IMG/VR virus record: IMGVR_UViG_2740892427_000001
DNA: 64,000 nucleotides
From: a virus
Lineage: Duplodnaviria; Heunggongvirae; Uroviricota; Caudoviricetes
Strand: one strand, 5' to 3'
Shown here: piece by piece, positions 29,363-30,520 of the stretch
Layout: each line of letters starts with the position of its first letter
Position numbering within the stretch: position 1 is the first letter of the stretch
Program-made: the position numbers and the translations under genes
Notes under the pieces: generated by a model
The model's input: the letters and a program-made list of their open reading frames with translations, nothing else
Told to the model about the DNA's origin: nothing
Database searches by the model: none

Positions 29363-29382
29363 AGGCGTCCAACTGGACGCCT
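29363..29382. terminator. stem-loop AGGCGTCCaactGGACGCCT flanked by A-run and T-run (bidirectional terminator-like)
   Basis: 8-bp GC-rich stem, aaaaa upstream and tgaacttttt downstream. Confidence 0.6.
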
Positions 29383-29398
29383 GAACTTTTTAGGGGAG

Positions 29399-30229
29399 TT
29401 ATTTCACTGTAATGAAAGGAGTGTTAGCCCCTTGAGTCATGTACTGCGGTAACTGGCCATTCCATTTATTGATGGCTTCCAGTTCCATAACGTTCGGGTT
29501 TTGACGCAGAGCTTCACCGCGCAGACGAATGGCGTCTGCTTCTGCTTGCGCACGAGCACGGATAGCATCAGCTTCACCATTAGCCTGTTCACGTAGCATA
29601 TTCGCCTCAGCTTTACGCTGTTCGACTTCCTGCTGACGTTGCAGAGTACGCTGGTTAGCCGTTACTTTGGCGTTAATAGATTCAATGACGGTTTTTGGGT
29701 AATCAGGCTTTCCAACCCATGACAGGCTCAGTACCTCAATACCAACCGGAGACATCTCTTTCTGAATATCTTTCAGTGCGTTGTCCAGCAATTGTGCCTT
29801 ACCACCGTCGATAAATGAGTCAGTGGTCATACGGCTGGCCAAACGGTTTAGAGAGTCGGCAATTTTCTGACGCAGATCTGATTCGGTGATATCGTCTACG
29901 CCTTTGCGATAGGTCTGGAACACCGTCGTTACCTTGTCACGATTAACCAGATACGCAACGCCAATTTTGTGACCAATAGCAGTACCGTCACTCATCTGGA
30001 ATGTGAACGGTTCGTCGTAGGTCTTCATTTGTTTGAAGGTCGGGAATACGTAAAGTTCGGTGTTAAGACCTGTCCATTGGCGACCAACGCCAACCACTTC
30101 ACCAATCCCTTTGTCTTCACCTAATTTGTTTACTTTGATGCCAACGTATCCAGGCTCCACGCGATCACAGCCAGTAAGACCCATTGTGCAAATAGCCGCC
30201 AGAGCAACTGCAAGTAAACCTTTCTTCAT
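29399..30229 (-). CDS. SPFH/band-7 (stomatin/HflK-like) domain lipoprotein
   Basis: lipobox GLTGC; SPFH-like core followed by Ala/Glu-rich coiled coil (EANGEADAIRARAQAEADAIRLRGEAL). Confidence 0.7.
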   Translation of the reverse strand: MKKGLLAVALAAICTMGLTGCDRVEPGYVGIKVNKLGEDKGIGEVVGVGRQWTGLNTELYVFPTFKQMKTYDEPFTFQMSDGTAIGHKIGVAYLVNRDKVTTVFQTYRKGVDDITESDLRQKIADSLNRLASRMTTDSFIDGGKAQLLDNALKDIQKEMSPVGIEVLSLSWVGKPDYPKTVIESINAKVTANQRTLQRQQEVEQRKAEANMLREQANGEADAIRARAQAEADAIRLRGEALRQNPNVMELEAINKWNGQLPQYMTQGANTPFITVK

Positions 30230-30232
30230 TAC

Positions 30233-30433
30233 TTATTTCCCCTTTGCTTTGATTAATGAGTTGATAAACTTACGACCAGCAATAAGACCGATTACAGGAG
30301 CACCAAAACCAACGATAACTCCAAACATGACGGCTAAATCACTCTTGGTAGAAATCAGCGACGGAACCAGTAAACCGTAGATGAGAGCCACTGAAAGGCC
30401 TGTGGTTACTGCCAATAGATAGATTTTGATCAT
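30233..30433 (-). CDS. small two-TM membrane protein (66 aa)
   Basis: hydrophobic ORF immediately upstream of and co-oriented with the SPFH gene. Confidence 0.5.
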   Translation of the reverse strand: MIKIYLLAVTTGLSVALIYGLLVPSLISTKSDLAVMFGVIVGFGAPVIGLIAGRKFINSLIKAKGK

Positions 30434-30501
30434 GTGTTTTCCTATGTGGTTGTTATGCGAAAATAATAAGTAAGTACTTATATATTTTCAAGAGATAAAA
30501 A

Positions 30502-30520
30502 AGGCGTCCTGTGGACGCCT
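30502..30520. terminator. stem-loop AGGCGTCCtgtGGACGCCT, near-identical to the one at 29363-29382
   Basis: 8-bp GC stem, aaaaa upstream and ttgtgttt downstream. Confidence 0.6.

Follow-up and report, generated by a model that had tools for sequence, protein, structure and literature searches.

The 64,000-nucleotide stretch of viral DNA analysed here (in its whole length, the window; IMG/VR record IMGVR_UViG_2740892427_000001) carries on its minus strand a compact two-gene cassette, encoding a small protein with two transmembrane (TM) segments and an SPFH/Band-7 lipoprotein, immediately 3' of an intein-containing recA gene. The 1.26 kb around this cassette are 99% identical to 'Escherichia phage CMS-2020a' and 94–95% identical to phages PhiR41_1 and Cyrano (all ~108 kb), and reach 99.6% identity to many non-mobilizable E. 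coli plasmids of ~110 kb; judged by these matches, the window is an SSU5/pHCM2-type phage-plasmid of E. coli. Cyrano is itself an SSU5-type phage-plasmid, carried by E. coli LF82, and ciprofloxacin served to induce it in the same study (PMC9928086). Along the minus strand, the order is recA terminator, promoter, two-TM gene, SPFH gene and terminator, with the two open reading frames (ORFs) in the same frame and separated by a stop codon and 3 nt. The features of the cassette and its borders are as follows:

30501..30521, minus strand: hairpin 1, predicted intrinsic terminator of the intein-RecA gene (terminator scan, RNA fold, conservation)
30494-30509, no strand: right copy of a 16-nt perfect direct repeat, GATAAAAAAGGCGTCC (repeat search; 1,139 bp spacing)
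30463..30491, minus strand: sigma70-type promoter-like site, TTGAAA-17 nt-TATTAT (10/12 positions; 30 nt 5' of the first cassette gene)
30465..30486, no strand: palindromic operator-like element AATAAGTAAGTACTTATATATT, core TAAGTACTTA, covering promoter spacer and -10 (repeat search)
30233..30433, minus strand: two-TM protein gene, 66 amino acids (aa) (ORF list, hydropathy, phrog_1130)
29399..30229, minus strand: SPFH/Band-7 lipoprotein gene, 276 aa (ORF list, Pfam PF01145, phrog_200)
29363..29382, minus strand: hairpin 2, predicted intrinsic terminator of the cassette (terminator scan, RNA fold, conservation)
29355-29370, no strand: left copy of the same 16-nt repeat (repeat search)

The 276-aa product matched the whole Pfam Band_7/SPFH profile (PF01145, residues 23–209, E 2.6e-30, 106.2 bits against a cut-off of 23.6) and, over its full length, phrog_200 ('lipoprotein', E 3e-108). 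Its N terminus carries the lipoprotein signal MKKGLLAVALAAICTMGLTG followed by CDR, in which the lipobox LTG-C21 agrees with the pattern [LVI][ASTVI][GAS]C and predicts lipidation, with Asp at +2 and Arg at +3. All 11 phage homologues inspected had a Cys lipobox, as did at least 85 of 111 family representatives; among the other 26 representatives, ~15 have a hydrophobic N-terminal segment without Cys, and the rest an atypical Cys-containing box or a miscalled start. Asp at +2 after the lipidated Cys is the inner-membrane retention signal of E. coli (Lol avoidance). It occurs in the window, SSU5, P88, the P1-like plasmid, phiP27 and the N4-like KpCHEMY26, and the residue at this position (residue 22; window ~30164-30166) is otherwise Glu in 4MG and KpPF25 and Ser, Asn or Gly in phages of Pseudomonas, Erwinia and Caulobacter.

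An AlphaFold2 (AF2) model of the monomer, computed from an alignment of 111 diverse relatives, reached a predicted local distance difference test score (pLDDT) of 93.6 and comprises a signal helix, an SPFH alpha/beta domain (strands in 21–95 and 164–176), a 65-residue helix (179–243), a short helix and an extended tail. The tail reads KWNGxLP in the window protein and KWxGxLP across the family, in which G49 and W256 are invariant and G258 and P261 nearly so. Foldseek searches of the PDB returned HflK/HflC, prohibitin 1/2, erlin 1/2, stomatin, flotillin, major vault protein and QmcA at probability 1.0, and the best PDB matches by sequence were HflK (E 0.007) and prohibitin-2. The model thus combines the SPFH fold with a long coiled-coil-type helix of the kind found in cage-forming members. 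Against the NCBIfam HflC/HflK models TIGR01932, TIGR01933 and NF008259 it scored 30.2, 18.7 and 16.8 bits, short of the 134.4, 159.4 and 427 bits of an equivalog. The body of the protein is predicted to lie outside the cytoplasm, as in HflK/C. Compared with SSU5, the gene retains 94% aa identity at ~81% nucleotide identity, with a ratio of non-synonymous to synonymous substitution rates (dN/dS) of ~0.024, by which measure it is under very strong purifying selection. A preceding sequence-only reading had called the protein an SPFH lipoprotein, and profile score, predicted fold, structural matches and family-wide lipobox all uphold that call. SPFH proteins are scattered through the phages and giant viruses of BFVD, with no assigned function in the listed descriptions.

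The 66-aa product was likewise described correctly from the sequence as a small two-TM protein beside the SPFH gene: hydropathy gives two hydrophobic segments (~residues 3–25 and 31–54) and a basic C-terminal tail. It is predicted to sit in the inner membrane with both termini in the cytoplasm, exposing a short periplasmic loop with the conserved sequence LVPSLISTKSD. Its match to phrog_1130 ('membrane protein') spans the full length (E 2.3e-25), and PHROGs places it in the category 'moron, auxiliary metabolic gene and host takeover'. In an alignment of nine homologues, P24, S28, G38 and P46 are invariant, and across the enterobacterial loci inspected the loop follows the motif (L/V)P-x-(L/M)-(I/V)-S-x-(K/D/N)-(D/S). 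With dN/dS of 0.08–0.25, the partner evolves faster than the SPFH gene. No Pfam family matched the 66-aa protein at E <= 0.1, and none, NfeD included, matched the nine homologues even at E <= 5. An NfeD/YqiJ-like partner, suggested in the sequence-only reading as something to look for, was therefore rejected, 66 aa also being too short for the soluble domain. Relative to Cyrano, nucleotide identity is 99.4% for the SPFH gene (100% in aa) and 78.8% for the partner gene (72.7% in aa), with synonymous divergence (dS) of 0.63 in the partner versus 0.027 in the SPFH gene. This places a mosaic breakpoint at 30229/30233, implying that the segment with partner and promoter recombined independently of the SPFH gene.

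By tblastn, the SPFH protein was found in 413 phage records. Temperate carriers include phiP27, Stx2a phages, the P2-like P88, a 99.6-kb phage (presumed P1-like from its size and from the IncY plasmid named below) and Burkholderia and Desulfovibrio phages of ~40–55 kb (presumed Mu-like); strictly virulent carriers comprise Vequintavirinae, N4-like Schitoviridae, Bruynoghevirus, Erwinia Ounavirinae and phiCbK-like phages, and the Lak megaphages carry it too. Plasmids with the gene numbered 658 (620 non-mobilizable), and 737 of 5,426 complete E. coli genomes (14%) had it, about equally often on the chromosome and on plasmids. Searches with the 66-aa protein (tblastn and word-indexed) recovered close relatives only, and distant partners came to light when the ORF 5' of each SPFH homologue was examined. 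A two-TM homologue stands directly 5' of the SPFH gene in the window and at 11 of 12 further enterobacterial loci examined (SSU5, Cyrano, pEH4236, KpPF25 p2, P88, the P1-like IncY plasmid, phiP27, Shigella and Klebsiella lambdoid prophages and N4-like KpCHEMY26 among them), its ORF often overlapping the SPFH start. At the twelfth, the rV5-like 4MG, one ORF lies between the two. Immediately 5' of the SPFH gene in TL, phiEa104 and phiCbK is an ORF not recognisably related to the two-TM partner.

The pair is annotated in SSU5, Cyrano and P88, and in phiP27 except for its partner, an unannotated homologue (NC_003356, ~3307-3492) that abuts the SPFH start. Similarly, the partner on the P1-like plasmid p28Eco12 is missing from the PLSDB gene table, and the homologue there overlaps the SPFH start. 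In lambdoid prophages, the operon leading from the CI-like repressor gene in the direction of int contains the pair, as does the early operon of P88.

The hairpins at the two ends of the cassette share an identical 7-bp stem. The pattern GGCGTCC-N3-6-GGACGCC occurs exactly twice in the 64 kb (29364-29381 and 30503-30519) and not once in 100 shuffles, bearing out the earlier observation that near-identical hairpins bracket the cassette; with two copies in the window, a common repeat of this genome was ruled out. On the coding (minus) strand, each is a GC-rich stem of 8–9 bp including 6 GC pairs, followed by UUUUUUAUC. Hairpin 1, AAGGCGUCC-ACA-GGACGCCUU and then UUUUAUC, lies 5 nt past the recA stop and folds at -20.1 kcal/mol (z -6.3 versus shuffles); it is kept in SSU5, Cyrano and Klebsiella plasmids, and in Enterobacter hormaechei pEH4236 with one stem substitution (AGCGTCC). 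Hairpin 2, AGGCGUCC-AGUU-GGACGCCU and then UUUUUAUC, lies 17 nt past the SPFH stop, folds at -15.6 kcal/mol (z -3.9) and is kept in SSU5, Cyrano and E. hormaechei. Both thus have the marks by which intrinsic (Rho-independent) terminators are predicted, namely a GC-rich stem-loop, an immediate U-tract and a position after a stop codon. The similarity runs on into the 16-nt direct repeat, and stem and U-tract of the distal terminator are, to judge by this identity, a copy of those of the recA terminator. An Rfam scan of the intergenic regions gave only two sub-threshold matches, both over a terminator, and no known RNA. As brackets of the cassette, the hairpins stand in part: the distal one does end it, while that at 30501-30521 ends the recA transcript and is followed by the promoter-like site that precedes the first gene. 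Both are read as ordinary intrinsic terminators and not as insertion scars of a mobile element.

The promoter-like site that follows the recA terminator and precedes the first cassette gene was the best match within positions 28000-33500, and is kept in SSU5 (with -10 TATCAT), pEH4236 and Cyrano. The palindrome within it is one copy of a dispersed motif, whose consensus joins the half-sites ATAAGTAAGT and ACTTACTTAT, and which gave 14 hits at nine loci in the window against 0.09 expected:

2276-2301, 7245-7262, 14294-14315, 19014-19031, 30463-30488, 35249-35274, 42654-42671, 49279-49304 and 56243-56260: motif loci
28847-28865: weaker motif copy

The motif often ends in a -10-like TATCAT or TATTAT. 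In Cyrano it occupies ~16 loci, all of them intergenic and 13–127 bp 5' of a gene, in both the DNA-metabolism (early) and the structural modules, and all 14 first genes 3' of these sites were at or near background in the RNA-seq of LF82 lysogens grown in lysogeny broth (LB). The motif is a candidate operator for a global phage regulator, the operator-like sequence that such a regulator might recognise being ATAAGTAAGTACTTACTTAT, or may define a phage-specific class of promoter. The former case would resemble the dispersed C1 operators of P1, and under either one the cassette would be wired into the phage's own programme. No description of this palindromic motif of SSU5-type elements was found in the literature searched.

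Expression could be followed in one study of the 94%-identical relative Cyrano in LF82, rather than in the present element (PMC9928086, S1 table). In overnight LB cultures, the Cyrano pair gave 5.0 (CYRAN_56) and 13.9 (CYRAN_57) normalised reads, the median being 9.8 and the threshold for 'morons' 49, and neither gene is among the 13 Cyrano 'morons' (PMC9928086). Expressed as log2(fpkm+5), where fpkm is fragments per kilobase per million reads, the values in LB were 2.32/2.32 for CYRAN_56 and 4.30/3.02 for CYRAN_57, and rose to ~5 for both after 1 h in the bacteria-only sample B1, taken as cell-culture medium without macrophages, and to 7.6–7.7 and 7.25–7.4, respectively, after 6 h in macrophages (PMC9928086). 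The rise in macrophages amounts to ~10-fold for CYRAN_57 and at least 40-fold for CYRAN_56, the latter from the read floor, and both flanks stayed low (recA 4.06, CYRAN_58 ~4.1); CYRAN_60-62, the major capsid gene and a tail gene were also up in the same sample, and no Cyrano virions were detected in macrophages (PMC9928086). These data support transcription of the pair as a unit of its own, which stays off while the element persists as an ordinary plasmid-prophage; the rise of the pair in macrophages may reflect partial derepression.

The cassette had been taken for an inserted unit. As a recent event, this did not hold: GC content is equal inside the cassette and in its flanks, which rules out a foreign composition, and the unit occupies the same position in elements of ~80% identity. 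SSU5 has the same two genes 3' of its recombinase gene, with the same hairpin stems around different loops and the same promoter, and pEH4236 differs from this arrangement by the one substitution in the recA-terminator stem. DNA identity to the window is ~80% for SSU5 and the Enterobacter plasmids (~81% in the SPFH gene). Annotations of Salmonella pHCM2-like and Yersinia pestis pMT1-like plasmids likewise put the SPFH gene, with its neighbours, next to the recombinase gene. Because locus, hairpins and promoter are shared with such divergent relatives, we consider the cassette old and syntenic in this lineage.

It is nonetheless precisely absent from some relatives, as emerged from the comparison across related genomes that the sequence-only reading had proposed. 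Plasmid A of E. coli D4 is 99.5% identical in both flanks and lacks exactly the interval between the repeats, leaving one hybrid hairpin made of the recA-side flank, the stem, the loop ACA and the distal flank. An identical empty junction was found in 7 of the 180 E. coli-lineage plasmids that match this junction, and the other 173 presumably carry the cassette. One E. hormaechei plasmid is also empty; loop (ACTT) and tail of its hybrid hairpin are those of the distal terminator, which places the junction in the other arm. In the main Klebsiella lineage (264 plasmids with an empty junction), the recombinase gene is followed by a single hairpin and then by the sequence that in SSU5 comes after the distal terminator. 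In our interpretation, the empty sites arose by repeated precise loss, the two terminator copies recombining or slipping against each other; in Klebsiella, an ancestral empty state is a possible alternative. On present comparisons, the best explanation is a locus polymorphic for presence and absence without a dedicated recombinase, the duplicated terminator supplying the direct repeats. Together with a promoter-like site and terminator of its own, independent transcription in Cyrano (PMC9928086) and the recurrence of the pair in unrelated phages, this absence agrees with the accessory status first suggested for the cassette.

We propose, with a probability of about 45%, that the cassette is an accessory operon of the lytic programme which builds a periplasmic SPFH assembly on the inner membrane, partnered by the two-TM protein. 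Transcription would run leftward from the sigma70-type promoter just past the recA terminator, through the two-TM gene and the SPFH gene, and stop at the distal terminator, the unit belonging to the repressed programme of the phage, lytic or derepressed, and not acting as a constitutive prophage gene. The lipoprotein would be exported and held by Asp +2 on the periplasmic face of the inner membrane, where its long helix and C-terminal tail may mediate assembly into a ring- or dome-shaped oligomer, in the manner of HflK/C, prohibitin and stomatin. The two-TM protein would be its membrane-embedded partner or client, with contact made through the periplasmic loop (LxPxLISxKD). During phage development, such an assembly could condition the inner membrane by fencing or shielding a patch of it, so that the membrane or a membrane protein is kept functional, or access to an inner-membrane target is controlled.

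Several points weigh against this proposal. Overall, the promoter scan was not enriched over shuffles (6 sites versus 7.2 expected), so that the promoter call rests on position and conservation. The AlphaFold model describes a monomer, from which oligomerisation, partner contact and phenotype are extrapolated, and a lipid-anchored SPFH ring would be without a TM fence of the HflK/C kind. Retention in the inner membrane is predicted from the Lol-avoidance rule, here with Arg at +3, and because the +2 residue varies it would not extend to the whole family, members of which may be sorted to different membranes. In distant phages, the SPFH protein can apparently function without the two-TM partner. 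The expression data, as noted, belong to a relative, and the rise in macrophages could represent a stress-induced prophage function rather than a lytic one. A bolder version of the proposal, which we consider rather unlikely, is that the pair forms a phage-specific periplasmic SPFH nanocompartment, a lipid-anchored dome on the two-TM protein that sequesters or gates a host inner-membrane machine and constitutes an unrecognised exclusion or anti-defence device of temperate and virulent phages alike; its targets could be the DNA-entry route, FtsH or a depolarising abortive-infection effector.

Other explanations have to account for the same observations. Small inner-membrane proteins and lipoproteins are the usual agents of superinfection exclusion, as in T4 Imm/Sp, HK97 gp15, P22 SieA and T5 Llp, and the pair might similarly keep the DNA of other phages out or abort their infections, acting in the lysogen or else early in the phage's own lytic cycle. 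Both products are envelope proteins, encoded by a dispensable unit with its own promoter and terminator that moves between unrelated temperate phages; the PHROGs category of the small protein points the same way, and presence in virulent phages would suit an early function like that of T4. The pair nevertheless shows neither homology to known exclusion proteins in Pfam searches nor a match to known defence systems (no PADLOC-DB v2 family at E <= 1 for either protein, which ruled these out), and strong purifying selection on the SPFH protein differs from the fast turnover typical of defence genes. A gene protecting the lysogen would be expected to be expressed constitutively from the prophage, which failed on two counts, since the pair was at background in LB-grown LF82, outside the Cyrano 'morons', and forms part of repressed early operons where lambdoid and P2-like prophages carry it. 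We therefore hold exclusion or membrane defence, which had been among the first suggestions, to be unlikely. We give still less weight to mimicry of HflK/C, in line with the earlier suggestion that a host membrane protease is modulated, through which the SPFH protein would modulate FtsH and alter the turnover of phage and host membrane and regulatory proteins, such as CII-like factors or holins. HflKC-FtsH controls lambda CII, HflK and HflC are the closest matches in sequence and structure, and the predicted topology, anchored at the N terminus and facing the periplasm, is the same. The authors of the phage CSP3 paper speculate along similar lines on a phage SPFH protein (PMC10269572). Identity to HflK/C, though, is only 16–18%, with 30 versus 134 bits at NCBIfam; prohibitin, erlin and stomatin match equally well, so that the resemblance is to a generic SPFH cage; the SPFH protein has no TM helix with which to enclose FtsH, and its conserved partner does not resemble FtsH; and members of the family are frequent in strictly virulent phages, for which there is no lysogeny decision to make.

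The macrophage data (PMC9928086) would also fit a factor of lysogenic conversion or stress, in which a prophage lipoprotein is switched on in host-associated conditions and contributes, for example, to envelope stress tolerance or acts as a TLR2-active lipoprotein: the pair rises ~10- to at least 40-fold at 6 h and no Cyrano virions appear, a HflK/C-like prophage protein of Pasteurella multocida has been reported as a TLR1/2 agonist and virulence factor (PMC9872710), and bacterial SPFH proteins have been linked to stress tolerance. We find this improbable, because the macrophage sample also shows raised expression of major capsid and tail genes, as in partial derepression, the family occurs in many virulent phages, and the pair lies in early lytic operons of other prophages; the Pasteurella precedent (PM0222) may be no more than an analogy. 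At least as improbable, in our estimation, is that the hairpins serve a mobile gene cassette as recombination sites, through which it spreads site-specifically in the manner of integron attC sites. Direct repeats containing the hairpin do bound the cassette, empty sites in three lineages retain exactly one hairpin with the junction at different points within it, and the pair occurs in many phage backbones. Against this, the fetched P88, P1-like and phiP27 loci have no GGCGTCC hairpin beside the pair, and no integrase or recombinase is annotated next to the cassette; since the hairpin does not travel with the pair and no recombinase adjoins it, a dedicated mobility site is unlikely, and an integron-like cassette was ruled out. 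The stems are short (7–9 bp), with U-tracts in coding orientation right after stop codons, deletion across the 16 nt of short homology explains the empty sites, and the seven empty E. coli plasmids share one identical junction.

Among characterised systems, the E. coli HflK/HflC cage around FtsH shares with the phage protein the SPFH domain, the long helix, the C-terminal segment, an N-terminal inner-membrane anchor and a predicted periplasmic body, but the phage protein is encoded by a single SPFH gene instead of paired hflK-hflC genes, carries a lipobox signal and hence a predicted lipid anchor in place of a TM anchor, and is accompanied by a 66-aa two-TM protein and not by FtsH. The SPFH-NfeD operons (QmcA-YbbJ, YqiK-YqiJ, PH1511-PH1510) are also two-gene units of an SPFH scaffold and a small multi-TM protein, and QmcA is a structural match (8z5g), yet the phage partner lacks the NfeD OB-fold domain that defines them and the phage SPFH protein carries signals for export and lipidation, whereas QmcA and YqiK face the cytoplasm. 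With phage morons, the cassette has in common a sigma70-like promoter and a terminator of its own between conserved genes (matches at the level of consensus, kept in relatives), absence from some relatives and occurrence in unrelated phages; unlike them, it was not expressed above LB background from the repressed prophage in the lysogens of Cyrano, its promoter contains the phage's own operator-like motif, and it lies in early operons elsewhere and in virulent phages too. Envelope exclusion proteins, to which phi80 Cor also belongs, are likewise small phage inner-membrane proteins or lipoproteins, but show no detectable homology to the cassette proteins, and none of them has an SPFH domain.

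Both cassette proteins are full-length members of their families, phrog_200 and phrog_1130, to which no tested function is attached, and we found no experimental function for phage SPFH lipoproteins in the literature searched. The existence of the genes is not new, as annotations such as 'SPFH domain-containing protein', 'Stomatin-like integral membrane protein' and 'lipoprotein' attest. Within the literature searched, what appear to be undescribed are the conserved pairing with a non-NfeD two-TM partner across unrelated phage families, the outward-facing, lipid-anchored version of an SPFH scaffold, and a twin-terminator arrangement combined with precise loss; neither the phrog_200/phrog_1130 pairing nor that arrangement was found described there. 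A survey of SPFH proteins in P. aeruginosa makes no mention of phages or lipoproteins (PMC13086221).

The cassette lies in the replication and recombination part of the element, among genes for RepA, small ORFs, the DUF7238 protein, intein-RecA, an exonuclease, a gp32-like single-stranded DNA-binding protein and UvsY. A first impression of a T5-like phage, prompted by the recA and exonuclease genes, was set aside on the 99% identity to SSU5-type phage-plasmids. The two flanking genes, both outside the cassette, are:

30526..32865, minus strand: upstream flank, RecA-type recombinase gene split by an intein with a LAGLIDADG homing endonuclease (Pfam RecA E 3.3e-36, LAGLIDADG_3 2.4e-17, Intein_splicing 2.1e-11)
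28882..29307, minus strand: downstream flank, DUF7238 gene (Pfam PF23885, E 5.3e-38)

At the same place in SSU5 and the Klebsiella plasmids, the recombinase gene is uninterrupted (~1.07 kb), from which it follows that the intein, too, is polymorphic for presence and absence. The stretch directly 3' of the cassette (window 28000-29307) varies among SSU5-type elements: the E. coli lineage has the DUF7238 gene, SSU5 and the Enterobacter plasmids have an extra DUF2591 gene, and the main Klebsiella lineage has only a 58-aa remnant, the start of which resembles the DUF7238 protein.

SPFH scaffolds such as HflK/C, prohibitins, stomatins and flotillins form membrane-attached cages. The example of this cassette cautions that a unit bracketed by terminators is not to be read as a defence 'moron' from its architecture alone. 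As a compact and strongly conserved two-gene version of an SPFH system, for which natural relatives without the cassette are at hand, it offers a tractable entry to what an SPFH assembly does for a virus, and would test whether phages manipulate the organisation of the inner membrane of their hosts.

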